Notes: a model not told the origin generated them from the letters alone. DNA of 50,214 bases from Girardia tigrina (GCA_001938485.1 MQRK01236650.1:1-50214), one strand, 5' to 3'; shown: positions 1,732-50,214, counted from the first letter of the stretch. Numbers and translations: made by a program.

Positions 1732-2670
1732 ATGGATACCAATAAAAATTACATATGCCACTGTATATTATTTATGTTTAATCTTGGCAAAACTGCGTCG
1801 AAAGTGGAGGACGAAATTTACCAAGCATATGGCACAGGTTCTGTTCGCCTTACAACGATCAAAAAATGGTACACCAAGTAAAAGAAGGGCAAATTCAATC
1901 TGGAGGACCAGCGACAAAGTGGTAGACTGAAAGAAATGAAGGACGGTGAGCTTATGGTTCTCTTAGAAGAAGATGATGGAGAGTCAACCCTTGAATTGAC
2001 CAAGCGCGTCAACGCTAACCAGTCGACAGTCCTGTGGCGTCTGAAAGCTCTAGGAAAGGTGCAGAAAGCAGCAAGATGGGTCTCACATGCTGTCTTTCCC
2101 GAAACAAGGACAGTAGGATGAATATTACCATGGCTCATCTCACCTACCACTGAAGAAAATTGTTTTTATAGTGAATCGTCACTAAAGACGAGAAATGGGT
2201 GTATTAAGATAACTCAGAACGAAAGAGAGAATTTAGAGAGACGGTAGACCCCGGAACTCTCTAAATGTTAACCCCAAAACACAATATTCACGGAAAGAAG
2301 GTATTTCTGTGTATATAGTACGAAATGAAGGGCCTTCTTTATTATGAGCTGTTGGATTCCGGGCAAACGGTTACCGCACAACGCTATTGTGATCAGTGAG
2401 TTATGGAAAAATGTGAGTCATTGTAGATGCAAGGTCATACAGGTGCATGATAACGCTAAACCGCATGTTGCTTCGGCGACGAAAAATATGATTTTAGTGC
2501 TTGGATGGGTGGTTCTACCGCACTTGTCCTATTTACCCGACTTGGCTCCAACAGATTTTTATATATTTCGGTCTTTGCAACATTATCTCGTTATCTCGCT
2601 GAAAAACATTTCAAAACATGCAATGAAGTCAAGAAATGCATAGATGACTTCATTGATTCGAAAGATGAAG
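1732..2670 (+). pseudogene. Mariner (DD34D) transposase pseudogene
   Basis: Starts MDTNKNYICHCILFMF at 1732. Motifs WVSHAV (WVPHEL), IVTKDEKWVY, HDNAKPH and YLPDLAPTDFYIFRSLQHYL (YSPDLAPSD). Several stops and frameshifts. Confidence 0.95.
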
Positions 2671-3392
2671 ACCATAATGAAATTTTTGTATTACTAATGA
2701 CTTCCTTTTAATTCAATTTTATACCGAATAATTTAAATTTTTGACAAATGTAAATAAATTCTGAATCCCAGGGCCATGACTTCATTTTTCTGGGTTTAAA
2801 CCTTATTTACAATGCATCAGTTTTACCTCTCACAAAATTGTTTAAACAATCGGAATGAATTTTTTTATAATTATTTGGCATTGTCGGTTTTAATCGCTTT
2901 CGCACTGTTACAAGTGGAGTTTTTGGCATGTTCTGTACTACTTTCCCTTGATGTACGAGAAATTCACACTAATCACAACGATTATTGTTTCTTCAAGTCC
3001 TGATCATTGTCCACAATCAATTCATATCACCTGTAAATACAAAGTAAACTTTTTGTCAACTTCGAGGTTAAAATCTAAATAAAACTTGTTTCTTTCCTTT
3101 CTTGGAAGGATGTTAAAAATGTTTTGTCTCATCTTTGGTTTCCGAATTAATTTTTCAGTCTTTCAAGGTGTTACTTTAATATATACTGATTTTTTCGGTA
3201 GTACAGACAAAACAGTAAATTTTTTTATAGGCAATGAAGAGCACAGATAGAACGCAATTACTTAAGACATTGTGAACTAAACGTAACGTATTGTAATGTA
3301 TCATGTGTTCAATTTGTCACTTATGTTGTCTACTAAATTCACTCAATCAGAGTTCTGCTAAGATCAATGTTTAGATCATCAATCATGGTAGA

Positions 3393-4585
3393 TGATGGTG
3401 CAGGAGCGGGCGCAGCGATTTTGTGGCCGCAGCGCACCGGCAACGAGGAGCAAGCCTCTGGTCGGGGGGGTACATTTAAATGTTACTTTTACATTTTACA
3501 ACCCTGAAATGGCCGTCCTGAAAGGCGCTTAACTTCAATGATCTTGTCCCCCGCATAGCATCAGAAAATTCGTCATACTCGCTACAATTCTCATCGATTT
3601 TTGATGTTTGCCAAAAAACCACAGAAANNNNNNNNNNNNNNNNNNNNNNNNNNNNNNNNNNNNNNNNNNNNNNNNNNNNNNNNNNNNNNNNNNNNNNNNN
3701 NNNNNNNNNNNNNNNNNNNNNNNNNNNNNNNNNNNNNNNNNNNNNNNNNNNNNNNNNNNNNNNNNNNNNNNNNNNNNNNNNNNNNNNNNNNNNNNNNNNN
3801 NNNNNNNNNNNNNNNNNNNNNNNNNNNNNNNNNNNNNNNNNNNNNNNNNNNNTGACCGTCGATTAAACTTCCACCTTCGAGAAAATTACAAACGTTTTCG
3901 TCGCGTTTCGAGACCAATAAATACGTTTCTTTTAAATTCGATTGTTGTTCTTCTTCAGAATAATGTGTATAAAATTTTGTTATTCGTGGTTTGCCGTGAT
4001 TATTGAACACCAGATTTGCTTTAATCATGCTAAGAATGATAATAAAACGTTGGTTTGTTTTCTTGTCCAAAAAAAAATTAATTTCACACAATTATATTTT
4101 GATAATTTCCTTCAAATAAAAAAACTTGAAAAATGTCGGTTTTAAATTTTTTATTTTCCACGACAATTTTGCGCCAATCACCAAATCAAAATTGATTCGA
4201 ATAAACAATAAAAAAAATTTCACTGATTTCGACCAAAATTCACATCAATTAATATTAAAAAAAATAATTTCGACCAAATTTCACAAATAAAACATTTGAG
4301 TTCCAAACATTGATATTAAACAGACATCGGTGTCAAAACCCAATTTCCAGAATTCTTTTAGCAAATTTTCTATAGGTTTTAATGATGAAATTTTTGATTT
4401 TATAACCGAATACGAGAATCTGAGTACTGTATTGAAATTTCCAACAAAAATACCGGAAAGATTTTCAGTGTTAGTAAGAAAATTTTCAAGATTTTTTGAT
4501 TATAATTATGCGACAAACTCAAACAATTGAGAAATGTGTAAACTCGGAAAAATTTGAAATTCGTTAATGATTTTATCACAAAACA
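3393..4585. mobile_element. Insertion with TG...CA ends and 5-bp TSD GTAGA, carrying an AP-3 sigma gene fragment; contains an N-gap
   Basis: GTAGA at 3388-3392 and 4586-4590. The paralog near 13823 has one GTAGA and no insert. The insert begins TGATGG and ends AAAACA. Confidence 0.8.
3853..4028 (-). pseudogene. AP3S: AP-3 adaptor complex sigma subunit, 5' 58 codons, intronless, cut off by the N-gap; probably a captured or degenerate copy
   Basis: MIKANLVFNNHGKPRITKFYTHYSEEEQQSNLKETYLLVSKRDENVCNFLEGGSLIDG closely matches the conserved AP3 sigma N-terminus. It has non-conservative changes at conserved hydrophobic sites and lies inside a TSD-flanked insertion. Confidence 0.85.
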
Positions 4586-4776
4586 GTAGAGTGCATTCAA
4601 ATCCCTTAAATATGTAAGAATTGTTCATTTCAGTTCATGGTTTTCTTTCTATCATGTTATTTATGATTATAATTGTGTACATTATCAATGTAAAAAACAT
4701 CTCTGAGGGGCCTCAGCTTTATAGTCACCCTGATGGTAAGTACTAATACTCATGATTGTACCAAAATCTTAAACAA

Positions 4777-5014
4777 TCTTTTTCCCAAAAACCGTAATAT
4801 TATGGTTAGCATGATATGTTTGTTTATATTATCAGTTGGGCTATTGACTTTTGATAGTTGGTAAAAATTTTGCGGAATGTTTTGAATTGTTTGTATCTTT
4901 TTCCCAAAAACCGTAATATTATGGTTAGCATGATATGTTTGTTTATATTATCAGTTGAGCTATTGACTTTTGATAGTTGGTAAAAATTGTGCGCAAGGTT
5001 CTGAATTGTTTGTT
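4777..5014. repeat. Tandem duplication, 2 x ~119 bp
   Basis: TCTTTTTCCCAAAAACCGTAATATTATGG... occurs twice head to tail. The second copy runs into the LTR-like sequence at 4988. Confidence 0.9.
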
Positions 5015-7886: not shown

Positions 7887-7994
7887 TTTCTCAAAAAATT
7901 TGTTTAAATATTAGATTGAAACATTTTTTGTGGTATAATAAAAATTTTAATCTCTGCTACTAATAACTCCGACGATGTTCCAAAAACCACTAAT
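7887..7994 (+). mobile_element. 3' part of a 5' LTR preceding gag; related copies at ~503-600, ~11591-11700 and ~15805-15922
   Basis: Shared GTTYCTCRAAAA...TTGTTT motif. This copy is followed immediately by TGGCGGCC (PBS-like TGG) and the gag ORF. Confidence 0.55.
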
Positions 7995-9027
7995 ATGGCG
8001 GCCTTTGCCACAAACTCTGACCAATTAATCTCCAAATTGATTCTGGAGCATTTTAAACGGGATGACGATGTCGAAGTATTTATTACGAGTTATTATAGAT
8101 ATTTTAAAGCAGCAGGAGTATCCGATAATTTAAAAGAGCCTATTGGTGGTAACTTTGCTTTCGAGGGAGTTAATCCCGGTATACGAAAACACGAGATCTT
8201 CAGAAAGAGGTTTTGAGAACAGGTTACGAGAAGCGTTTCAAAAAAAGATATCAAATGGATGTTCTTAGAGAAGCCGTAGAATTTCAAAGAAAAACGAAGA
8301 CGACATCAGAATTTTTTGCTAAAGCGAGGAAGATGGCTGAATCGACAGTATCGTTTCAATGGACAGTCAAAGAAGTGGAAAAATGCCTGTTATTAAATTG
8401 TAAAAACGATAACGAAACAAAGAAAGAAATAAAAATGAAGGATATGCAAGAAAAAGAAGAGATAAAGAAAATTATTAAAAAGATGGATGAAGTCAAGTCA
8501 GAAATAAAACAGGTCAATGCCATAAGACCATCTTATGCCAGTGCTGTACATCGTAACAAGCTAGTAAACAGTAGATTTCCGGTGAGAAATGGACCAAATA
8601 GAGAACAGAAAACCTGCTGGAATTGTAATGAAGTAGGCCATATGAGAGCCCAATGCCAGAAGAAGCACGAAGGGACATGTTTTGGATGCGGTCAAAAAGG
8701 CCGCATGAGTCGCGTATGTCATCTACAATGCAAAAGATGTCAAAAACCAGGCCATAGAGCGGATGAATGTTATACAAAATTCGAGATAACGTCTCCAGAT
8801 TTAACAATAATGAAAAATCGGATGGAAGAACATGGGGACAAAAACAGTTTCCACGAAATGACAGGCAACCAAGAACGAACGGAAGATCAAATCAGTATTC
8901 GAATGACTACTACCGAGGTATAGCGAGAGGACGAGAACTGTCTGCACTAGAAAAAGAAGACAAAGATTTCTTGGAAAAAAACGAAGACAGCCAAATCAAC
9001 GAGGAACCGATTTTGGCGATGGAGTAA
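7995..9027 (+). pseudogene. Ty3/gypsy gag with three CCHC-type zinc knuckles, frameshifted
   Basis: ORFs 7995-8216, 8213-8923 and 8767-9027. Knuckles CWNCNEVGHMRAQC, CFGCGQKGRMSRVC (H to R) and CKRCQKPGHRADEC. Confidence 0.9.
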
Positions 9028-13140: not shown

Positions 13141-13992
13141 GACTTCATTTTAATTCAATTTTACACCGAATAATTTAAATGTTTAAAAAAGTAAACAAAT
13201 TCTGAATATTATTTACAATTCTTAATAAATCATTTGGCATCAGTTTTATCTCTCAAAAAAATGTTTAAACAATCGGAATGAATTTTTTTATAATTATTTG
13301 GCATTGGCGGTTTTAATCGCTTTCGCACTGTTACAAGTGGATTTTTTTAGCATGTTCTGTACTACTTTCCCTTGATGTACGACAAATTCACACTAATCGC
13401 AACGATTATTGTTTCTTCAAGTCCTGATCATTTTCCACAATCAATTCATATCACCTGTAAAACCAAAGAAAACCATGGGCTTTCTTTTTGTCAACTTCGA
13501 GGTTAAAGTCTAAATAAAACTTGTTTTTTTCCTTCCTTGGAAGGATGTTAAAAATGTTTTGTCTCATCTTTGGTTTCCGAATTAATTTTTCAGTCTTTCA
13601 AGGTGTTACTTTAATATATACTGATTTTGTCGGTAATACAGACAAAACAGTAAATTTTTCTAGAGGCAATGAAGAGTACAGACAGAACGCAATTACTTAA
13701 GACCTTGTGAACAAAACTTAACGCATTGTAATGTATCATGTGTTCAATTTGTCACTTATGTTGTCTGCTAAATTCGCTCAAACAGAGTTCTGCAAACCTC
13801 AATGTTTAGATCATCAATCATGGTAGAGTGCATTCAAATCCCTTAAATATGTAAGAATTGTTCATTTCAGTTCATGGTTTTCTTTCTATCATGTTATTTA
13901 TGATTATGATTGTGTACATTATCAATGTACAAAACATCTCTGAGGGGCCTCACCTTTATATTCACCCTGATGGTAAGTACTAATACGCATGA
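13141..13992 (+). repeat. Copy 2 (uninterrupted, empty site) of the ~850 bp duplicated segment
   Basis: Matches 2699-3392 joined to 4591-4755. Confidence 0.95.
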
Positions 13993-15054: not shown

Positions 15055-16340
15055 ATATTGTGTTTTTTGAATATTTTTGTATAAACATTTTAATAAACTT
15101 CGTAAGAATTTAATATTTATTATTAAATTTACATTTTTTCATATTTTATCTACTTTTAAAGTTTATATAATTCTGTTGAACTATTTTTAAGACATTATAT
15201 TTAATTTTTTTAAATCAATTTGATTACAAGTTCGCTTACTTTAAATTTTATCCAGAACATTTATTTTAAAAAATTATTAATATTGTAATTTTATACCACA
15301 TTTTATCGTCTTCGCGTTTTTTACAATAAATTTCTATTTTTTACTTTTATAATGTGATATTATTTTAAATGTATTTTTAGTCTTTAATTCAAAAAATTAA
15401 GTCTCCAAAAGCCTTACAAAATGATTCATTATCCACAAAAGAAAATAATGTATACGATTTGAAACTTTGAGGTGAACTCTAAAAATATAGAAAAGACAAT
15501 ATCGCCCCCCTATACATACACAACATACCTATGTACAACAAACCTTCATTTTATTTCATTTAAAAAGAAAGCTTTTATAAATTAAAATGTTTTATTCCCA
15601 AGGAATATGTAAAATTTCAATATTTTTTAATAAGCTACCGAAATTTTAGATATAAAAACTTTTCAAATGTAATTTTGAAAATTCCGAATGAAAACGTAAA
15701 GATATCGTAACATTTTAAAACTTCAAATTTTAGAAGTAAATTATGTAAATGTATTTATATTTAATTTTATTTATATTATAATTATGTTGTGCGAAAGAAA
15801 AAATGTTCCTCGAAAATTTGTTTTAAAAAATTTTGTATTGAAATAAAATTGTAATATTATGATAATTCTCGGTTTGAATTCAAAATTGTGATATCGGTAG
15901 GAATGACCACAGCGAACCTAACATGGGTTTTAGTTAAATATTATGGCTTTCATAAATTATGTAATATGTAATTCATTTAATTCCAATTTAATCAATTATT
16001 ATCAGTACAGGTAAATCTTTACGAGACTCAGACATATTTATTATAACTATATATAACTGTCATCAAATCTATGTGTTTTGTTAGCACAATGGTTATAATA
16101 TTATCGTTTTTTGGTAAAAGTATTGTTTTGGCGAATGGTAGGTAAAAGCCCGAAGTTAATGTTATATTTTTTGCACAAAATTGTGGGTATACATAAATAA
16201 ACAGCAAATCCAACCTTTAACATCTTTTAAATTTTAAAATCAAATACGAGTCTTTCACCAAAACAATATTTTTCCCAAAAACCGTAGTAGGGGAAAAATG
16301 GGGATTCACCGGCACTACCCCCCCNGGGGGTGTGTAACTA

Positions 16341-16800
16341 GTTACCGCGCGGTTACCATAGCAATGGTCACAGTTACCATGGCAACGGTCGCCATCACCT
16401 TAGCAACGGTTGCGGTTACCATGGCAAAGGTCACGGTTACCATGGCAACGGTCGCGATCACCTTAGAAACGCTTCTGATTGGTTCCTGGTTCCCTAGCAA
16501 CGGTTCCAGGTCACTTGGAAACGCTTCTGATTGGCTCCTTGGTTCCCTAGCAACGGTCGCGATCACCTTAGAAAGGCTTCTGATTGGTCGGCGGTTCCCT
16601 AGCAACGGTCTCGGTTACCATAGCAACGGTAACCAAGGCACATTTTTCATAAGTAACGGATACAGTGATCCAAGATGGCTGTAACCATGGTAACGGCCCC
16701 CGTATCCATAGCAACCGTGACCCCGTAACTAGGGAGCGTAGAAAAAAGTGCTAATCGATCACTGCAGTGATCAAATGTGCAAATTGATATTTTGAAAGGC
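16341..16800 (+). repeat. GC-rich 21-bp-period array of RFX X-box-like palindromes with interspersed CTGATTGG boxes; probable subterminal region of a mobile element
   Basis: GTTACCATRGCAAC-type units start at 16352, 16373, 16394, 16415, 16436 and 16457. CTGATTGG at 16475, 16527 and 16580. Inverted copy at 38650-38814 and decayed copy at ~25715-25915. Confidence 0.85.
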
Positions 16801-16873: not shown

Positions 16874-17505
16874 TAGGGCCGCCGCGTGGGTAAGAGGTGC
16901 CTTTGTGCCAGATTATTTTCAGCGCCCTTCCCCGAACTGAACCCCCATGTCAAAAACTATGACTTGTTATGAATTTAATCATCAGAATATTTCCAATGAA
17001 TTCTTTTATTTTATAAAATAATTACAGGTTATATAATACGATAATATACAGGCATGGGTTATATACATACAATATATAATACTAAATCTAAGTAATCAAT
17101 AAAATTTGCTTGTCTCAAACATATATTAAGAATTAGATTACTTTATAATTATTCATCACTCAAAAATCAAATTACTTTTTACATATTTACTCTTCTAGCT
17201 TTAGCAGCTACATGACGCCTTTATCGAACGAAGTTGAGCGATCTACACGATCGCATCGCACGAAGTGACGAGCGCGCTTTCATAGCGTGGTATAATAAGG
17301 TATACGTTGCGCCCGCGTTTCCAGTATCTCTCTAATAAATCCATATTTGTCACTTTTTCTTTTTTATCATTTAATTTTTTTATATTTAATTTTAATTTTT
17401 TTATTTAGTGAGGTGGCGCCGAGTGAAAGAGGCGCCTGCCGGTGCCTTTAACACTCGGTGCCCTTGTGTGGCGCACAATATGAACAATCGTACGCGGCGG
17501 CCCTG
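16874..17505 (-). mobile_element. Non-autonomous hAT DNA transposon, 632 bp
   Basis: TIRs TAGGGCCGCCGCGT / ACGCGGCGGCCCTG and perfect 8-bp TSD GGTGCGTT (16866-16873, 17506-17513). An internal minus-strand ...AAKARRVNM* resembles a hAT transposase C-terminus. Confidence 0.93.
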
Positions 17506-18042: not shown

Positions 18043-18535
18043 ACAATAGCTGATAATAATAATTTGATTTTTTTGTCAAACTCTTCTGTTATAATAACAT
18101 ATTTGATAAAAGAAACAAAAGTTTATTTATAATTACTTAAAATTAATAAAAATAATAACTTACTGATTAATTTGAATCTGACTTCCACCATCATTAATAT
18201 TAAAATTAGAATCGCAATTACAATCGTGACGACTAAATATTTTAAAATCAAGTTAATTTTAAAAAAAATAAGTATTTGTTTTAAGAAAATCAATAAAAAT
18301 AAAGTTTTTTTATATAAAATTAATTATTTTAGTTTTTTTAATTTTCTAAATAATTTGATTTCTTAAGTTGTTGGCCGCTGCACAGTAGTTTCATTAATAA
18401 AAGTTACAAATAATCCTTCTTTAAAATAGAGATCATTTATTTAATCAATCCAAAAAAGATAATAAATTATATTAATTATAAAAATTATAATTACAAAAAC
18501 AACAAATAAACTTGAAAAAAGATGGCAATTTTTTA

Positions 18536-19558
18536 TTAAAAACAAATAAACGCCATTTAAAAATATATTTTAGGATAATATATTTCGACGGTTTAACCGT
18601 CATCATCAGATCACTGATTNNNNNNNNNNNNNNNNNNNNNNNNNNNNNNNNNNNNNNNNNNNNNNNNNNNNNNNNNNNNNNNNNNNNNNNNNNNNNNNNN
18701 NNNNNNNNNNNNNNNNNNNNNNNNNNNNNNNNNNNNNNNNNNNNNNNNNNNNNNNNNNNNNNNNNNNNNNNNNNNNNNNNNNNNNNNNNNNNNNNNNNNN
18801 NNNNNNNNNNNNNNNNNNNNNNNNNNNNNNNNNNNNNNNNNNNNNNNNNNNNNNNNNNNNNNNNNNNNNNNNNNNNNNNNNNNNNNNNNNNNNNNNNNNN
18901 NNNNNNNNNNNNNNNNNNNNNNNNNNNNNNNNNNNNNNNNNNNNNNNNNNNNNNNNNNNNNNNNNNNNNNNNNNNNNNNNNNNNNNNNNNNNNNNNNNNN
19001 NNNNNNNNNNNNNNNNNNNNNNNNNNNNNNNNNNNNNNNNNNNNNNNNNNNNNNNNNNNNNNNNNNNNNNNNNNNNNNNNNNNNNNNNNNNNNNNNNNNN
19101 NNNNNNNNNNNNNNNNNNNNNNNNNNNNNNNNNNNNNNNNNNNNNNNNNNNNNNNNNNNNNNNNNNNNNNNNNNNNNNNNNNNNNNNNNNNNNNNNNNNN
19201 NNNNNNNNNNNNNNNNNNNNNNNNNNNNNNNNNNNNNNNNNNNNNNNNNNNNNNNNNNNNNNNNNNNNNNNNNNNNNNNNNNNNNNNNNNNNNNNNNNNN
19301 NNNNNNNNNNNNNNNNNNNNNNNNNNNNNNNNNNNNNNNNNNNNNNNNNNNNNNNNNNNNNNNNNNNNNNNNNNNNNNNNNNNNNNNNNNNNNNNNNNNN
19401 NNNNNNNNNNNNNNNNNNNNNNNNNNNNNNNNNNNNNNNNNNATTTCTTATATAAAAGCAATAAAAAAGAACATAATCAGTGATCTGATGATGACGGTTA
19501 AACCGTCGAAATATATTATCCTAAAATATATTTTTAAATGGCGTTTATTTGTTTTTAA
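18536..19558. repeat. Perfect 84-bp inverted repeat (18536-18619 / 19475-19558) flanking an N-gap
   Basis: The arms are exact reverse complements. Either a foldback element or a scaffolding artefact. Confidence 0.85.
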
Positions 19559-21916
19559 AAACAACAAAGCTTAAATTTTATTAACAGGGTGCAACCAAGA
19601 TTAATATTTGTATTTGAAAAGAACTAATTTGTATATCTCCTCATAATTTTATCTAAGTTGCTTCTAGATATTATTTTCTTATTGTTTAGAATAGATCGTC
19701 AGCTATTTTGAAAAATCGTTTTGTATTTTTTGAGAAAAAAAATGATATATATTGTGTGTCTTAATTATAATTGTGCAAACCCTGAAGGTTGAAGAGAAAT
19801 AACAAAAAATAATATTACCAGATAAATAACTATTAAAAAAATAATTTAAGTAACACAATGAAAATATATGTTAGGAGATAAAACAATGAAATAAACTAGA
19901 AAACTTTTAATAAAAATACACTAATCTGACTATATGACAGGATGAACGTCTAAACACTTGTAAGGGGATAGAATGTTATTGGTATCACCGAAAAAGTCTA
20001 TAACGTTTAGATAGAATGGTAAGGATAATTGATTATGGTAATTGGAGTATCTGATAATAATCTAACACCAAATTGACAAGGAATAGAACCGAGGTAAAAG
20101 AAAATTGAATCTTGTATCGGAATTGAATGAGAGATGAAATTATTGATTCTAATTTGCTAATTTTTAAATTGGGCGGCTCGCTAGGCTTATTTCGTCATAT
20201 GTTATCGTTATTTGTCTTTTAAACAATTAACAATAGTTTCTTAAAATGATAGTTGGAATATTAGAAGACGTTTACGAATTTTTTATTGATTTGATTGGTA
20301 TCAAGATGAAGGGAATTTTATTTTTTGGAAATAAAATTACCATAAAAAGAATCCGTTGTAAAATTAGTCTTTATAATGGCTAGCTAATTTTCAATATTAA
20401 AATCCACGGATTAATATAATATTGATTTGGATATCGAAATTCGATAAATAAAAAAGGTAAGTATTCTTAAATTGACAAAAATAATAATTTTGTTTTAATA
20501 ATAGGTAATTATTCCAACTAGCTTTGGCGATAATATGAATTGTCGTGATTGATACGATAAAAAGGTAATTATTTTTTTTCTATCTTTTCTTTTTCATTTT
20601 TAATTTCTTCTGATTATAAAAATTAACATAATTATTCACCCACATTTTTTGTGGAGATTTCAACGGAATTTTCTGCATCAGATAATGAATCTGAATGAAG
20701 TATCTGTGGAAAGACGACTCAATGTATAATCTTCCATTGAGATTAATTATTTAATGAATAAATATTCTTATATAAATATTTTAAGATAAATAAATATAAG
20801 AAAGAAAATAAAACTACAATAAAACAATATCGAATTGCTACAATATAAATAAATAAATTATTATTCAATTTTATTAACTAATTATTCACTCAACCATTGG
20901 TTTAAAGATGTATGAATAATTTTCCTTATGTAAAATTAAATAATTTCTACTGGGACTTTTCAAACATAAATGTTTTTACTAAAAAATTGTAAGTTGGTTT
21001 AAGTGTGTCAACAAAATTAATTAAAGTATTAAGGAAGTTGGTAAGGAGAGTTGACTGAAAGGAGGTATACTTCACAGTTTCTGGAAATATGCTCTGCGAA
21101 AATGTGTTATTACCGAAGATGAGTGTCTGATGATATACTAAAAACTTATATGTGATCAAACAACAAGTTTGTTTCTGTTTGTGTAAAGTATCCATAGTTT
21201 TAACCGAATAATTTGATTTCAGATTTATTAAATTGTAAAGCATTTAGGAAAGATTTAAGTTTGCGTATGGGTGTCATATTTAATCTTTGTGGCGGGAAAC
21301 ATTTAATTTTCAGATGAATGTCACATTTATTGAGAAGGTTTCGTCAATAAGCATTACATGCGATTTTTGAGTTTTAGGGAATCTCATTAACTCTAAACCA
21401 ATTTCAATATGTAATGATTATTGTGTAAAACCATTTGTTTAAATCGGTGGATCGTCAAAGCTGTTTTTTATTTAAATAAATTTTCATGCAACACGTTTAT
21501 CTTGTTCTGATTCAGAGAACATATTGTTTAGTAAATTCTTTTTATACATGAAATAATTTATATATATCTCAGAGATGACAACATAATAAATGTGGTTAGT
21601 TACAGAGATCAAATAATAACTCCTTTTGTAAAAGAATCATTCTTTTTTTAGGTCATTCATCAGCTACAATTCAAGAATTACGAAACAAAATTATGATGTT
21701 ATTACTAAAGAAGCCTTGGTTAATGTCTATGGTGATTTTGTTCGCCCATTGATTTATGTATTCAAGATAATAAAGCTCATTTAAATATATTTTTACAAAA
21801 CATTGAGTAGAAATAAATAAAATATAAATAAATAAAAGATTACTGAAAAGACAGAATAAATTAAATAATTATAATTTTAATAGTTACACTAGTAATTTTG
21901 AATTTTAAATACTATT

Positions 21917-23323: not shown

Positions 23324-23593
23324 AAAAATCAAAAGATTTTTTAAAAATAAATATCTTTGAAATGATTAATAATAAATATTAATTTGATTACTAGGGTGAT
23401 AATACATTTTTTTCATTTTTCTATGCCTTACAATGTGACATTTATTTTATATTATAAAATTTATATTATAAAATAACTGTCACAATGTAAAGTATAGAAA
23501 AATGAAAAAACTTATTATCACCCAAGTAATCAAATTAATATTTATCATTAATCATTTCAAAGACATTTATTTTTAAAAAATCTTTTGATTTTT
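23324..23593. repeat. ~270 bp near-perfect AT-rich palindrome (foldback/MITE)
   Basis: ~125 bp arms are reverse complements with few mismatches, e.g. ATTAATTTGATTACTAGGGTGATAAT vs ATTATCACCCAAGTAATCAAATTAAT. Confidence 0.9.
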
Positions 23594-25714
23594 AAATCCT
23601 GATTAACGTCTAAAAACTCAAATATAAATAATATTTGCTGTTAAACAAAACAAAAAATTTATTCTAAAAATAATATCCATGTTTTTACAAAACTTAAATG
23701 TGTTTAGATAAATCACTTTGTATATTTAAGCATGGTATTAATTACTTAATAAATAATGTTAATAAAGTGCAGATATGACGATGTGTTTCTCCAATATACA
23801 ATATATGCAATTTTTAAATGATAAGTTATTTCAATTATAATACGAAAATTTATTTTTGAATTTTATTTATAATCTTCTTATAAAAATTTATAATTTAAAA
23901 ATTATGTTATAAAATTTTAACTTTTTTGAAGTTTTTAAATTATTTAAAAAAACGAAGTAAAAAGAAGTAACTTCTCAAAGATACAATTGACCATGACTTA
24001 AATAAATTAATTTTATTTGATTTTATTCATGAAAATATTTTAAATTTTACTTATTTAAATATTTTCTATAATCAACTTCTAACACATATTTATTATTATT
24101 AAAATAAATTACCTCCAAACCAATTCAGCAAATATATCTTATCTAAATAGTAAATAGATATTAAATTAAACAAAATTGAAATACAATTAATTAAAAATTA
24201 ATTAGATTTTACTGAAATACTTTTATTTCTCAGATAATATCCTTTATGTGGCCCAAATTAGGGATCAGTTGTTGATTCGACACGGGGAGCGTATAAACAT
24301 ATTTATATACTAATCTTAGTGAGCTCTTATTTGATATTTTTCAAAAATAATTTTGTTAAAGCTTTTTTTGAGAAATTGATTATTATATATGTTAACTAAT
24401 ATGAAATTTTGTTAGTAAATATAATAATAATCCGGAATTTATTGTATATTAATGGTAATTTTTTATTTACTTTTATTGAAGATTTTAGGAATTTAGAGGG
24501 TAATTACTTTGCCAATTTTGAGAATTAATTATTGTGCTATTAAGTTTTATAAATAATAATTCCCAAAACTGTCTCTCATAATGTGAAAACAGAAAACTTT
24601 TTTCATTTGAAATAGAAGATGTTCTATTTATACAATATAACCAATGATCAAGAACGTAACTCGATGATGATTTGTCTCTCCAATACGATCCTCACGTCCT
24701 ATAAATGTAAATAGACTGTGGCTTTTTAGGAGGCCCGAGACGCATACGGATTCATAAAGCACTCCCTTCAACTGGGGATTGACATGCCTAAGCTCCGCCG
24801 GCGAACAGGTTTCGCACCACCACTATCCTAGAATCTTTGCCGTTGTAGAACGTGAAGAATTTGAACAGCATCCTATCGAAGGCGGCGGTAACTGATTTCC
24901 GGCACGGAATCTCAACAATTGTGGTGCATTGTCAATTATAATTCCAAACACCTATCTAATGACGGTATCAATATCGGTTTTAATGGGATGCAGAAAGGTA
25001 TCGCAATATGGTTACTTAGGGCATGCAATTCTCTCTTCTCGCCAACCATCCTTTCTTTCACAAAATCACTCGTTGTAACGACTCCCTGGTCTGTAACGGC
25101 CAATAAAAACGACTCAAACTGAAAGCTTAATGCGATAATCGAACCTAAATTATTATGTAATCGATGCTTTATCAAGATCAAGTATTAAAACGATCACGGA
25201 TTTCATTCCTAAAGCAAAAAAATGAGATTCGGTGCTCAAACAAACGGCAGTGAATTCGTATTTCGGATATGGAACATGTAAAACATATTATTTTTCTCGT
25301 AATTAATGAATTGCAGTTGTCTTACCTTCTTTAAGATGATTATTTCGTTCGTATAAGAGCTTGGTTGAAGTAAATGAAATACAGTGAACATTCCTTTTCG
25401 AAATTCGAATTCCCTGAACATTTCAGTCGTTACTATGTGTTAGAAAATCAATTGATTATCAAAATTAACCCTGCACAAATATCCCTCATTTTTAGTCGAC
25501 CATAAAACTTGCCAATTTTTGCGCCCTCAAATTGATGTCGAGACACATTATGTTTTTGTCGGAGATAAAAGTAAATCACCGTTTTTCAGCAGTAAATAAT
25601 CAATTTTTTATGTCCAGTTATCCTTTAAATATTTTTTTCCATTCGATCACTTGTCCAAATTCATGCTAAATCCCATAATTTGTAACATAGAAGTAGGTAG
25701 GAAATGAACTTCCT

Positions 25715-25915
25715 TATGGTTTCCATGACAACATTGCCAATTACCTTAACAAAGGTTCCAGTTACCATAACAACGTATCCGATTGCCTTAGAAACGGTTT
25801 GTAAATGTATCATGGCGACGGGCCACGTCACTTTATAGTACGTCACTTAGTAGTACCTTAGCAACCGTCACAATTACATTATCAACCATCAAAATTACCT
25901 TGATAACGATAACCA
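25715..25915 (+). repeat. Decayed copy of the 21-bp X-box array
   Basis: GTTTCCATGACAAC, ATTACCTTAACAAA, GTTACCATAACAAC and ATTGCCTTAGAAAC at 21-bp spacing. Confidence 0.7.
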
Positions 25916-26139
25916 TTAAATTATGTTATCGACCGTTCAAAAAGCAACCGGACTGATTGTTTCTGCTCGGAAATATTTCGACTAATTGTTCTTCTATTTT
26001 GTTCGCAGTTGATGAGCCATCCTTTGGTCTTGTATCTCTATCGGCATAGTGCCAGTATATATAATTTTTTATAATAATTTAGAATGTTATAAGAATATAT
26101 ACTCATGTTTAACAATTTAATCCTTGAAACCTATCTAAT

Positions 26140-38039: not shown

Positions 38040-38545
38040 CACGTTTCCAGCATCTGAAAGTTTTTCTTTGGAAACATATAAACATTTATAATTCGTAGTG
38101 TAAATCATTTTTCCACAAAACTTCTGTTTATCTTTCCTAATAAATCTCATTCCATCGGATGTAAGCGAGGACATTAAAACAGTTGCTAATTTATTTTAAA
38201 TTATTGGATATGCCTTCTAGTTTGGTACTTTTTTGGCTTTAAAATATCCGGTCTTTCTCTAATTTGCATTCCCTGACCTTCGATAAAGTCTGCTGATTTC
38301 AAAAATGTTAAATTGCACTCTTTGTAATTAACATTATATAATAAAACTGACTCTCCAGTCTGACAACTTGATTCTCTAAAGTTGCAAAATGGATGTGATT
38401 GTAATTTTCCAGTTGCATCATCAAATATTCCATCAAATGTTCTTAATTCTGTTTGATACTCTATCGAAATCATAATTTTTTGTATAATTTTTTTTCCTCC
38501 CAATTTTACAGGTTCACCTTCACAATCACCATTTACTTCAATCAA
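38040..38545 (-). pseudogene. Fragment of a class III viral fusion glycoprotein (chuvirus G / herpesvirus gB-like), frameshifted
   Basis: NGDCEG...CNFRESSCQTGESVLLY...C then, after a frameshift, MRFIRKDKQKFCGKMIYTTNYKCLYVS. The cysteine pattern and CGxxIxxTxxxxLxV motif recall chuvirus-type glycoproteins; recognised by eye only. Confidence 0.6.
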
Positions 38546-38549
38546 AAAA

Positions 38550-38814
38550 AATAGCACGGTGAAAAAGCACTGTGCTAGCACATTATAAATGTGCGGTAAA
38601 ATGTGCAATATCAATTAGCACTTTAAAAATATCGATTAGCACATCTAGGCACTGTGTAGTGATCGATTAGCACTTTTTTCTACGGTCCTTAGTGATATGG
38701 TCACGGTTGCTATGGATACGGTAAGCGTTACCATGGTTACAACTGCCTTGAACCACTGTATCCGTTGCTAATGAAAAACGTCCCTTGGTTACCGTTGCTA
38801 TGGTAACTGAGACC
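38550..38814 (-). repeat. Inverted copy of the X-box repeat family
   Basis: 38650-38814 is the reverse complement of 16607-16770 at roughly 85% identity by eye. It continues into TAGCAC/GTGCTA repeats down to ~38550. Confidence 0.9.
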
Positions 38815-39061: not shown

Positions 39062-40358
39062 TAATATTTATTCGCAAAATATAAAGGAATCTTTGATGTC
39101 CACTTAAAGTTTTAAATCTTCATTTGTCATTCCTTATTTAAACTTCAGATGGTTTTTGGTCTTCGTATGCAATTTTGGTGAATTTTCACTCATCAACAAA
39201 GATGTTTCATTTGGTTCTGAATAATTAAGATAAAATAAAGCATTAATTTATTTATATATATATATATATATTTGTCTTATACAATTTGTTCATTTGATTT
39301 ATCTCCATTTTGTATCAGAAGGGGTATAACGTCACTGATGTCAGCAAGTGTTTATAGAATTTACATCAAGACATTAATGAATGGCCTCAAAATGTATTCT
39401 ATGGGGTTCGAAATAAAGTACAAAAATAAAATAAATATAATTAATTGGATGTTTTAAAAATTACCTACATTTATTTGCTTGTTGTGTGATAAAAATCGCT
39501 CTTTTTAGAATTCGCTTTCTCTTGGATTTAGCGGATTGAGTATCCACATCAACTGCGTATTACATCAAACTCGTGAAAGATTTATAAGCCGCATGCCCTA
39601 AAAGAAGTTTTCAAAAAGGCGTTTTATGTGTTGATTATTGGTCAACGGAAGTATGTGGAGCGAAAAAGACATTATGTTAAAAAATGATGTCCACATACGT
39701 TAGGCTTCTTGTGTTATAAAATGGTTATTTTGAAATTTTCTTTCTTTATCAAGCCGATTATTTAAAGAATGCACGACTTACCTTTCCTGGCCTACTAGCT
39801 CAAAATGATTCTTGTAAAATAATAAAAAAGTATTTCTTCGTATGGCATGTCGTTAGAAATATTAACTTACTTATATCTATTCTTCTGTCATAGTCAACAC
39901 AGAAAAAATTACTCTAGGAAAAAAGGATTAATCTCTCACATATAGATTTAACTGCAGCCTTTTAAGACATATTGAATAAAGTTTATAATCTCAAAAGATA
40001 CTGTATGATTACTTTTTGTGTCAGGTAGAGTGCTTATTGAACTTACCACGCAAAAGCATTTTTATGAGTTTTTAATCCTGAGTATTAGTGTTTTATTTTT
40101 ACGATGAATTGAAAGTGAAGAATGTTTTTATGAAAAGTAATCATACATTATCATTACTATAAAAAAGTACGATACAAACTCAGATCATTCCATTTATATA
40201 AAATAATAAAGGGTAAAGAAATAATATAAATTTTGTATATCATGGTTGAAACTCGAGAAATACTAAATAAAATACTAAGCTGCAAACATTACGAATTTTG
40301 TTTACAAAATTGAATGACCCTACTCATTATTTGAATGTCATTGAAACTAAAAAAAGTT
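39062..40358 (+). repeat. Copy 2 of the ~1.3 kb duplication, fused directly to the integrase remnant
   Basis: Matches 32639-34152. Confidence 0.93.
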
Positions 40359-40371
40359 GAAACTAAAAAAA

Positions 40372-40962
40372 ATATGAGAGAAAAGATAAAAGAAGTTGTT
40401 CAAAGTTGTATAAATTGTCAAAAGCGAAAAACACTTACTGCGAAAACAAAAGAAAGATATATTAAGCAATTTGTAGATGAACCTTTTCAGAAAATATATA
40501 TTGACTTTTGTGGCCCATTCAAGAGAAATGTTAATGGATACCAGTATATTTTGGCTATAATTGATCAATTTAACCGATTTATTAGCGTGAATGCAGTTGC
40601 TCACCAAGACGATAAATCGCTACAGAAAATATTGCTTGATAGCTGGATATATAAATATGGACCACCTAAAGAAATCATGATGATAGAGGCAAAACATTTG
40701 AATCAGAAATATTTAAAGAAACACTGAACAAGTTTAAGATAGAAGTATTTTATTCAAGCCCATATCACCACAATACCAATGGAATTATAGCACGATAATT
40801 TAGAACAATTAGAGTTGCTCTTAATATCAGAATAAAGGATGGAACGCATAAAGATTAGACGGAAGTATGGTCAGAAATAGAATTTATGATGAATAGTAGC
40901 ATTCAAGCCACGACAGGTATCTCACCAGTAGAAATAATATATGGAAAGAAATTAAGACATTA
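40372..40962 (+). pseudogene. Ty3/gypsy integrase (zinc-finger CxxC and DDE core), degenerate
   Basis: CINCQKRK, PFQKIYIDFCGPF, YILAIIDQF, WIYKYGPPKEI, SSPYHHNTNGII. Confidence 0.93.
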
Positions 40963-48324: not shown

Positions 48325-48997
48325 GCAGCCCCATTAAATAATGTATTGAACTACTGGAGAGTTGCTCTCATTAATACCTTAGGTGCATGATATTATGTTA
48401 TAAGTTTTAATGTATCTATTTACATACCGTTTTTTATTAATTATTAAAAATAAAATTGATTGATAAAATACGAATTAATAATAAATAAAATTCACAAAAA
48501 TGTATAAAAAATAAAGTTTGAATTGAAATATAATCATATAAATTGAAATATCTAAAAAAATCAACATTAATTACTGATAAAATTAATAAGTAATATATTT
48601 TAAAAATGTATATATTTTAATTTTTTAGTGGTAATATGAATATTTTTTTTACCTTTTTGTTTGTAAATTTAATTAAATAATGTTTATGAACATTTTGTAT
48701 AAAAAACTACATAAAATATTCTTAAAATTGAAAAATTCATCGATTTTACCTATTTTGCAAAATTTTCAAGTTTTTTCTAAATTTAGAATATTTTAAATGA
48801 TTCTTATGAAGAAAAATAGAATCTATGTATATTTCTAACAAATCTTCTCCACTTTTATAAAAAATTTTTACAGACCATTTTATTTTAAAGAAAAATGGGT
48901 TTTTGTAAGTTAATCAGGGTTAATCTGTTAAATCAAATAATTTTTTAGAGGAAATTTGCGAAAAATTTTTAAAAAATGTTATAATGTTCTAATAAAA

Positions 48998-49453
48998 ATG
49001 GAAGCAAGTAAAATCGGTGAGGAAATTCGCATGGAGAAAAGAATATTTCGTGAAAATATTTTGAGAAGATATATTCATGAATTTAAGATTAATCCGCAAT
49101 TGAAGCATAAGGATTTATGTAATAAAGTTGGTGTATCAATTCATGTTTTTCGTCGAATTCGTCAAGATTTCGGTATGATGGAAAGTATGAAATCATATGA
49201 ACGAAAGTTACCAAGTATTTCAAAACGAAAACGAAAACCAGCGGAGAAAATATCTGAAAAACAAAAAATAGATGTAAATTCTCAAATGAATAATTTAACA
49301 ATTAATCAACAAAAACGCGAAAAAAGAAAAAAAGAAGTTGTTATTGGATCTGGAAAAACAATAATACAAGATAATGTTTCCGCTGTTCCATCTGATAATG
49401 AGGATGATCATAACATTGATGAAAGTAGTGCGGATGAAGAGAAAAAATTATAA
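48998..49453 (+). CDS. Polinton ORF, putative helix-turn-helix DNA-binding protein with basic NLS-like stretches and acidic tail (151 aa)
   Basis: NPQLKHKDLCNKVGVSIHVFRRIRQDFGM is HTH-like; KRKRK; AAAATG start context. Confidence 0.7.
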   Translation: MEASKIGEEIRMEKRIFRENILRRYIHEFKINPQLKHKDLCNKVGVSIHVFRRIRQDFGMMESMKSYERKLPSISKRKRKPAEKISEKQKIDVNSQMNNLTINQQKREKRKKEVVIGSGKTIIQDNVSAVPSDNEDDHNIDESSADEEKKL

Positions 49454-49466
49454 TATAATAATAAAA

Positions 49467-49964
49467 ATGGAACAAATAAATAAAAATTCATCTTTGGAAT
49501 ACGCGAAGAAAGATAGACGTGTAAAAGAGATTGCTCGTAAAAAAGAAAGTAAATTTATGGAGTTATCACTCATAGATCAAAGTGCTGTTGCTCGTAAAAA
49601 TATTTATGAGATGGAAGTTCTCAGTATGGCAATGGAATATATTTCCAACACAGCAATGGGATTGGTTGATGAATTGGAAGAAAAAGATATTGAATTGGAA
49701 TCTTCAAAGAAAAAATTGATTAAAGCGGAAAATATATTAGGTAGTACTGAAAATAAAAAAGCACAAAATGATTATTTTAATTTTTCTAAAGAAGTAGATA
49801 AGGAAAAAACTAAATCTCTTTTGGAAAATAAAAAATGGACTCCTCAAAAACAAGAAAGCTTCAAGCAAGCTTATTTGAAATATAATCTGGATGTAATGAA
49901 TAAATTTTTATCGGGAGGAAATAATTACCAGGAAGATTCAATGGATAACCATGGAAAAATATGA
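49467..49964 (+). CDS. Polinton ORF, uncharacterised coiled-coil-rich protein (165 aa)
   Basis: Intact E/K-rich ORF tightly packed between the HTH ORF and the ATPase; AAAATG start context. Confidence 0.7.
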   Translation: MEQINKNSSLEYAKKDRRVKEIARKKESKFMELSLIDQSAVARKNIYEMEVLSMAMEYISNTAMGLVDELEEKDIELESSKKKLIKAENILGSTENKKAQNDYFNFSKEVDKEKTKSLLENKKWTPQKQESFKQAYLKYNLDVMNKFLSGGNNYQEDSMDNHGKI

Positions 49965-50048
49965 AAAACTTAAGAAAACTTTACTTTTTAATAAAATATA
50001 GTGTAAAATACCCGAAAATGCGGTATTTTTCTAATAAAAAATAAAAAA

Positions 50049-50214
50049 ATGACGAATGAAAAACTAAATATTTTAACAATGTACGAGTCGAAATTCAATA
50101 ACAAATTATTCCCTAAAAATTTTCGAATTTTAATAGTTGGTGAATCGGGATGTGGTAAAAATGTTTTACTAGCGAAAATGTTATTGGAGGATAATTTTTT
50201 AGATTTCAATAATT
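50049..50214 (+). CDS. Polinton A32/FtsK-like genome-packaging ATPase, 5' partial
   Basis: MTNEKLNILTMYESKFNNKLFPKNFRILIVGESGCGKNVLLAKMLLEDNFLDFNN: Walker A GxxGxGK in a typical Polinton ATPase context. Confidence 0.85.
   Translation, partial: MTNEKLNILTMYESKFNNKLFPKNFRILIVGESGCGKNVLLAKMLLEDNFLDFNN

Follow-up and report, generated by a model that had tools for sequence, protein, structure and literature searches.

The capture of genes by LTR elements in animals has already been published, and the LTR-mediated retrocopies described by Tan et al. 2016 (PMC5131818) resemble the locus reported here in several respects: they are partial copies of host genes, truncated at the 3' end and without poly(A), they are embedded in mobile sequence and move onward non-autonomously, and their cargo varies per element family. 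In those retrocopies, however, the cargo replaces the internal ORF between two LTRs. Most LTR elements have TG..CA ends and 4-6-bp TSDs (PMC12440569). Small non-coding integrase products with 4-5-bp TSDs, namely solo LTRs and ta-TRIMs, are described in flatworms (Koziol et al. 2015, PMC4558846); a complete ta-TRIM comprises a pair of LTRs plus a PBS, and what that description gives for them is LTR-initiated fusion transcripts, not gene fragments inside the element. Burro, a giant Gypsy element of planarians, likewise joins flatworm LTR elements with host-like domains, but it exceeds 30 kb and holds these domains in frame in its polyprotein (PMC6431247; compared by description only). Outside the LTR elements, pieces of host genes occur in 22 of the 77 elements of GingerRoot, an integrase-related DNA transposon (Cerbin et al. 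2019, PMC6839031); some of its members have TG..CA ends, but most end in TA, and they possess 100-150-bp TIRs, mostly 6-bp TSDs and lengths of 3.9-12.9 kb. Ginger1 and Ginger2/Tdd (Bao et al. 2010, PMC2836005) also have TG..CA ends, with 5-bp TSDs in TDD-4 and TDD-5, but they are described with 40-300-bp TIRs, TGTNR ends and, in the animal members, 4-bp TSDs. Finally, Pack-MULEs and animal Pack-TIRs are mobile units with host gene fragments that are defined by their TIRs (Tan et al. 2021, PMC8277862).

The locus lies in a window of 50,214 nt from Girardia tigrina (GCA_001938485.1, MQRK01236650.1:1-50214; coordinates are counted from the first base of this whole stretch). Its features, together with the empty paralog used for comparison, are as follows:

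2699..3387, left half of the target repeat, an ~860-bp repeat interrupted by the insert
3388..3392, plus strand, left copy of the GTAGA duplication (single copy in the empty paralog)
3393-4585, insert proper, 1,193 nt, 225 of them N
3393..3470, minus strand, GC-rich conserved terminus (69% GC); its TG on the plus strand is a CA end in the sense of the cargo
3471..3627, interior, of which the first ~40 nt are weakly like the second copy of the terminus (copy 2)
3628..3852, assembly gap, 225 N; it may hide more sequence than stated
3853..4028, minus strand, decayed AP3S codons 1-58 plus 2 nt (codons at 3855-4028, ATG at 4028)
4029..4058, minus strand, T-rich tract ending AG-C immediately 5' of the AP3S ATG
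4059..4585, minus strand, AT-rich far arm, beginning TGTTTTG on the minus strand
4586..4590, plus strand, right copy of the GTAGA duplication (single copy in the empty paralog)
4591..4755, right half of the target repeat, continuing the paralog
13141..13992, empty paralog of the target, with one GTAGA at 13823-13827

Overall, the left flank (2699-3392) is identical to 13141-13827 at 630 of 673 aligned bases and the right flank (4586-4755) to 13823-13992 at 165 of 170, with an overall difference of 5.7% (Jukes-Cantor distance 5.9%). The flanks are collinear with the paralog, and the match picks up again precisely at the pentamer. Against the empty copy both junctions are unambiguous, and the insert starts with the dinucleotide TG (3393) and ends with CA (4585). 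The chance of a TG start together with a CA end is 0.29%, against 9% for an inverted pair of any 2 bp; among the pentamers of the window 0.06% read GTAGA, which is the chance level for the TSD. The GC content steps from 0.34 to 0.68 precisely at 3393. The GTAGA-flanked unit was truly inserted here, and its junctions are of the integrase type. The initial annotation had claimed just such a TG..CA insertion with a 5-bp TSD and an empty site in the same window, with GTAGA twice here and once in 13141-13992, and this was confirmed; the insertion it placed at 3388-4590 is real, but those bounds include both pentamers and the insert proper is 3393-4585.

We also considered that there had been no insertion, either through a scaffold misjoin across the gap or through a deletion between chance pentamers that gave the short paralog. 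A 225-N gap does lie in the insert, and the two halves share no sequence. Nevertheless, a misjoin of unrelated contigs is unlikely because both outer flanks are collinear with the same paralog and meet at the same pentamer. Moreover, the left junction coincides with the composition step and falls precisely where the twice-occurring terminus stops, and a gap may hide sequence but leaves the junctions unexplained. We regard an artefact or deletion as extremely improbable.

Six-frame Pfam searches of the empty copy (13141-13992) gave no match for the target repeat. Mariner transposase remnants occur at 1681-2690 and 31326-31673 (both plus strand), and the first of them stops where the target repeat starts. 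A 270-nt near-palindrome at 23324-23593 (92%) and a 90-nt inverted pair at 18530-18619 and 19475-19564 (98%), set around an 823-N gap, are either MITE-like or assembly-related.

In the sequenced parts of the insert we found no TIR (agreement is limited to 10 scattered positions among the first 30), in agreement with the earlier claim that long TIRs are lacking, and no LTR pair or long direct repeat between its arms. With no TIR and a duplication of 5 bp, the insert is not a GingerRoot element; with no LTR pair, it is not a TRIM. Ginger had been named as a candidate and is excluded on both TIRs and terminal motif: TIRs of 40-300 bp are absent, and the two ends, TGATG and TGTTT, are each one base off TGTNR. 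The TIRs that define Pack-MULEs and Pack-TIRs are likewise absent. The insert departs from LTR-mediated retrocopies in that no LTR pair is visible and that the unit, taking the stated gap size as correct, measures about 1.2 kb. Our search of the open-licence literature returned no report of a TG..CA element in animals that carries host cargo and has neither TIRs nor an LTR pair, which we take as weak evidence of absence.

The cargo is a piece of AP-3 sigma (AP3S), as shown by a PDB match (E 3e-23) and by Pfam PF01217. For comparison we used the best 120 of 638 significant relatives, among which the closest was P0001 (220 aa), identical at 54 of 58 residues. The copy carries Ile5Asn and Ile31Asn, and within these best 120 of 638 an Asn was seen in 0 of 120 homologues at position 5 (116 Ile, 4 Val) and again in 0 of 120 at position 31 (120 Ile). 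The reading frame is still open where the gap begins, the last 2 bases before it belonging to codon 59 and being compatible with the next residue of P0001, and the 58 codons are therefore a lower bound. In P0001 the rest of AP3S takes up 489 nt, whereas the 225 N have room for at most 75 codons. When P0001 and P0002 were searched by tblastn, only codons 1-58 were matched and nothing beyond the gap; a remainder of AP3S on the far side was rejected on this ground. Given the stated gap size, the 5' part of the gene is present, the 3' part is gone and there is no poly(A). Because of the Asn substitutions, and because 489 nt do not fit into 225 N, we read the copy as truncated and decaying; judged from the sequence, it is probably a dead, non-functional pseudogene and not a working locus.

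The host genome is AT-rich, and the relationships of P0001 fit a flatworm. P0001 has a QDY motif that is common only to two trematode proteins among the homologues listed. In a preliminary quick tree of 116 of the 120 proteins (four rows, two of them long fusions and two short, were left out), it fell on the trematode side of a branch with a support of 85, a placement that comes with a long-branch warning and is a lead only.

The initial annotation had described this cargo as the first 58 codons of AP3S without introns, preceded by about 550 bp of upstream sequence, and had treated it as something other than the working AP3S locus. The identity and the non-working status agree with our results, and the upstream DNA inside the insert measures 557 nt from the ATG. 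The end at codon 58 was given up, with the frame entering the gap. No intron is present within the 176 nt, and the claim stands for these 176 nt only, not as intron loss. In vertebrates, AP3S introns lie near codons 23 and 54.

Between the junction and the gap, the left interior (3393-3627) gave no match in Pfam (six frames), plasmids or phages, and none of 35 candidates from the protein set (one frame) reached E 10. The stretch 3471..3627 did not match AP-3 sigma. Rfam returned no match for the left interior and one weak U5 match elsewhere in 2600-4800, and ARAGORN found 0 tRNA genes in the whole window.

The GC-rich end of the insert recurs in the window beside a different host gene fragment:

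27742..27918, plus strand, decayed UCP-like mitochondrial carrier fragment (Pfam Mito_carr, E 6e-9)
28271..28329, plus strand, second copy of the terminus, ending CA; TTTAT and then a (TA)n tract come next

The terminal bases of this second copy (28306-28329) are identical to the left end of the insert at 20 of 24 positions; the next-best site in the window has 16, and 0 of 300 local window shuffles reach 19. Over 80 nt, the gapped score of the pair is 43; the highest score was 35.5 when the window was shuffled 200 times and 42.5 when the query was shuffled as often. A block comparison gave 43 of 59 identical bases, with transitions in 13 of the 16 changes. The homology ends exactly at the junction defined by the TSD and fades about 75-110 nt inward: for the subterminal 40 nt, 2 of 300 shuffles were equally good, and for 3511-3627 the number rose to 44 of 300. 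The left end of the insert is also one of only two window sites with a GC content of at least 62% over 78 nt. A third terminus at 17329 (16 of 24) was rejected, with 45 of 300 shuffles as good, and Rfam matches near copy 2 were rejected as (TA)n noise.

The other strongly GC-rich patch, 17200-17500 (plus strand), is unrelated to the terminus. At about 17415 it holds a TGG-initiated stretch ahead of a short ORF, which to us looks like a primer-binding site. A GC-rich array at 16340-16800 is built from units of 21 nt and 52 nt, which contain TGATTGG boxes and palindromes of the GTTACCATGGCAAC type, motifs that we take to resemble RFX X-box and CCAAT sites. It has an inverted partial copy at 38616-38814 and a weaker likeness at 25720-25930, and is probably the end of a mobile element.

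At the far end no such repetition appeared. No significant second copy of the right end was present in the window: a candidate at 29305 (21 of 30) only equalled the shuffle median and was rejected, with 45 of 200 gapped shuffles as good, and the whole far arm had no significant second copy either (172 of 300 and 19 of 100 shuffles). For copy 2, the best of 28 candidate far ends matched 12 of 20 bases, far ends sought from TTTA, TTTAT or TTTATG plus TG were rejected as chance level, and no matching TSD pair was found; upstream, copy 2 abuts another repeat. The comparison of termini that had been proposed gave a split answer within the window, with a second copy beside different cargo for the left end and none for the right. 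The proposal of a gene-carrying element is strengthened by a decayed housekeeping cargo and a second left terminus with another cargo; only one end is common to the copies.

The carrier fragment matches UCP2 in PDB (E 5e-10) and has a loop about 10-13 residues shorter than UCP1/2. It ends 410 nt inside copy 2, has the same sense relative to the terminus as AP3S, shows no intron, and is the probable cargo of copy 2. As for its parent, 17 candidates were considered and none was significant. A 93-nt repeat, 27647-27739 and 30934-31029 (85% identical), ends exactly where the carrier fragment starts. A weak Gypsy-type RT/RNase H remnant (E 0.009) lies at 26800-27100 (plus strand), about 650 nt upstream of the carrier and on the same strand; it may or may not belong to copy 2, and the proximity may be coincidence because the region is a patchwork of unrelated TE debris.

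We then quantified how readily a terminus would fall beside a host gene piece by chance. Of 201 ORFs of at least 48 codons, 200 were scanned (one containing N was dropped), and strong host-type matches were AP3S, the carrier and WDR36; three weak matches (E above 0.001) were left uncounted, and an otopetrin-like ORF was added to the host pieces. Both cargoes lie in sense orientation within about 460 nt of the shared terminus. When a terminus is placed at random, 1,383 of 95,458 positions (1.4%, post hoc) bring it equally near, and in sense, to one of the three remaining host pieces. The WDR36/Utp21 fragment (24939-25484, minus strand) is decayed, aligns to PDB chain residues 174-349, shows no intron over ~170 codons and has no terminus copy near it. 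The otopetrin-like ORF (35021-36514, plus strand) is intact, intronless and 497 codons long; it has no Pfam match, and its Atlas look-alikes are otopetrins at a score of 0.88, which is a lead only.

With one shared end, the insert could also be a LINE-type chimera made by target-primed reverse transcription, in which the shared 60-110 nt would be the 3' end of a LINE or SINE. The reverse transcriptase would have switched onto host RNAs, or a host transcript would have been read through into the element, and the product would have a very short tail of three-base units, variable 5' cargo and a short TSD. The observed pattern matches in part: the copies have only the cargo-sense 3' end in common and not the far one, each terminates in short ATC/ACC units, the window contains LINE RT remnants (RVT_1), and the similar bases outside both termini could be priming microhomology. 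On the other hand, the far-end TG (5.5% of dinucleotides) and the exact 5-bp TSD, known from one insertion only, would have to be coincidences. There is no poly(A) or real tail, the terminal units numbering at most two; it is the 3' part of the cargo that was lost and not the 5' part; and the terminus contains no conserved stem-loop (z -0.3 to -1.5, no compensatory pair). A LINE-type origin is unlikely, though it deserves attention.

Further mobile debris in the window includes gag zinc-knuckle, integrase and LINE RT remnants and a 137-codon ORF at 7920-8923 (plus), 40335-40727 (plus), 36654-37500 (plus) and 38201-38614 (minus); the 137-codon ORF is envelope-like by eye and has no database match. 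At 48941-50213 (plus), three consecutive ORFs, the first weakly HTH and the last weakly a Pox_A32 ATPase (E 0.001), may mark the border of a Polinton-like element.

The five bases that adjoin each terminus on its outer side, TTTAT at copy 2 and TCTAC at the insert, are two transitions apart, as is true of 1.8% of pentamers, a hint that the target is fixed or the end longer. On another reading, GTAGA would be no TSD but the core at which a tyrosine-recombinase or HUH element (Crypton-, DIRS- or Helitron-like) recombines, or the fixed target of such an element. Helitrons have TC..CTRR ends, an A|T target and a 3' hairpin, and make no TSD. An alternative parse does begin the insert with TC on the minus strand, but no parse of the junctions gives a CTRR end or an A|T target, and no unusual terminal hairpin is present. 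Short direct repeats without TIRs describe the Cryptons of fungi and oomycetes, which suits the 5-bp repeat and a second locus two transitions away, but animal Cryptons are described in the same source as having no terminal repeats (PMC3212892). The TG..CA ends would again have to be coincidence, and a recombinase core is very unlikely.

The far arm bears on a different possibility. Positions 4030-4585 have a GC content of 25%, and the arm is either U3-like DNA of the element or host DNA from upstream of the gene. It contains two overlapping ORFs, of 76 codons at 4300-4527 (plus) and 72 codons at 4284-4499 (minus). Two overlapping ORFs of at least 72 codons occurred in 29 of 1,000 shuffles, and the longest alone in 231 of 1,000. 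The plus-frame ORF 4300-4527 had no match among 1.84 billion representatives, and neither ORF matched in Atlas or Pfam, with PDB E values above 0.7; for want of a database match, their assignment to a neighbouring gene, a gag or a LINE endonuclease was rejected. Were the arm host DNA, the insert could be a one-ended capture at the DNA level, in which an integrase-type transposase would have used one true end and a cryptic CA in neighbouring host DNA. Each event would move a different piece of chromosome, here the promoter, outron and first exon of AP3S. This would account for TG/CA ends and a 5-bp TSD with one shared end only, and for the 557 nt upstream of the ATG together with an acceptor-like site within 10 nt of it; such a site is seen at 17 of 1,655 window ATGs, and the tract has 5 of the 6 bases of the flatworm UUNYAG motif (PMC12582326). 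The overlapping ORFs could be a neighbouring gene, and GingerRoot is described as capturing genes at the DNA level (PMC6839031). Against this, the ORFs match nothing and the longest is unremarkable, the common sense of both cargoes is not required and has a chance of 1 in 2, and the literature search above gave no precedent. We consider such an event improbable, and about equally doubtful is the family that would follow from it: small elements without LTR pair or TIRs, in which one 60-110-nt end suffices for integrase-type insertion with duplication of 5 bp and the other end is any TG/CA of captured host DNA. Members of a one-ended family would each carry a different host gene piece, as an asymmetric, integrase-driven 'pack' element of an animal.

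Whether the cargo came by RNA or DNA, there is evidence on both sides. For RNA, both cargoes are in sense and an intron is seen in neither, and AP3S lost its 3' and not its 5' part, with no poly(A); however, the host may be intron-poor, because the WDR36 piece is also without an intron over ~170 codons. The 30 nt before the AP3S ATG resemble the spliced leader of S. mansoni with a score reached by 8 of 1,654 window ATGs, whereas the M. lignano leader score was reached by 957 of 1,654 and is no better than average (leader sequences from PMC8629364 and bioRxiv 2023.07.20.549885). The top spliced-leader score in the window falls inside an RT remnant. We take the gene name 'orange' to mean AP-3 sigma, which fits the 'sigma-2 or' names among the homologues. 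A S. mansoni gene annotated 'orange' is present in a table of trans-spliced genes (PMC5832876); against its weight as evidence, trans-splicing affects at least 46% of S. mansoni genes (PMC7986045). For DNA or pre-mRNA, the insert holds 557 nt ahead of the ATG, whereas the 1,035-nt contig of P0001 has room for a UTR of no more than 372 nt. The tract 4029..4058 could, from its bases, be either a splice or trans-splice acceptor or a decayed spliced leader; the two readings each stand at about 1%, post hoc.

On balance, we lean towards the insert being an integrase-inserted, non-autonomous, solo-LTR-like chimera derived from an LTR element and carrying host cargo, a variant of the known LTR-mediated gene capture. 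It is favoured because a 5-bp duplication with TG/CA ends is the product of an LTR integrase, while the LINE-type origin needs at least two coincidences. We infer the integrase from junction anatomy alone, and with it an LTR origin, template switching and an RNA route. Element RNA and a host transcript would probably have recombined by template switching during reverse transcription, which would have placed the 5' portion of AP3S, in sense orientation, ahead of the U5-like end of the element. A retroviral-type integrase would then have inserted the product via a 5-bp staggered cut, and the present form would be a solo-LTR-like remnant or an LTR element collapsed around the gap. On a separate, older occasion the family would also have acquired the UCP-like fragment. 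The cargo is by now a pseudogene in decay.

Several observations are in line with this LTR-derived chimera. The shared terminus stops exactly at the junction; a retained 5' part, a lost 3' part and the lack of poly(A) are the pattern described for LTR-mediated retrocopies (PMC5131818); the age is coherent, with 4 of 58 residues off P0001 and flanks 5.7% apart; and, weakly, the Gypsy-type remnant upstream of the carrier is on the same strand. Of the solo-LTR features, TG..CA termini and a 4-6-bp TSD are both present, the TSD from one insertion. Against it, the sequenced parts hold no LTR pair or other terminal repeat, which would be compatible with a solo or collapsed LTR. A solo LTR should match, at both ends, the LTR of a gag-pol element in the same genome, and a second copy exists in the window for the left end alone; of the element sequence expected on both sides of an LTR-mediated retrocopy, one side only, the repeated terminus, is seen. 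The far end has no second copy and copy 2 no matching TSD pair, neither end fits the Gypsy/Ginger TGTNR pattern, the 557 nt and the acceptor-like site fit a DNA or pre-mRNA source, and the outer pentamers of the termini differ by just two transitions.

The support for a gene-carrying family is now better than in the initial annotation, and the kind of insertion is broadly known. Mobile elements that capture genes are known to give rise to duplicated exons, and the animal cases rest on LTR pairs or TIRs. The family of this insert looks like one that shifts gene fragments around, and the finding of one terminus in two copies with two different housekeeping cargoes in 50 kb suggests that it could be frequent in the genome. 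The terminus can serve directly as a probe, and fragments of this sort are open to mis-annotation as extra gene copies. If the far ends prove to be conserved, LTR-mediated retroposition would be extended to a flatworm, with the cargo inside the LTR; if they prove unconserved, integrase-type insertion from a single element end would be a mechanistic surprise.
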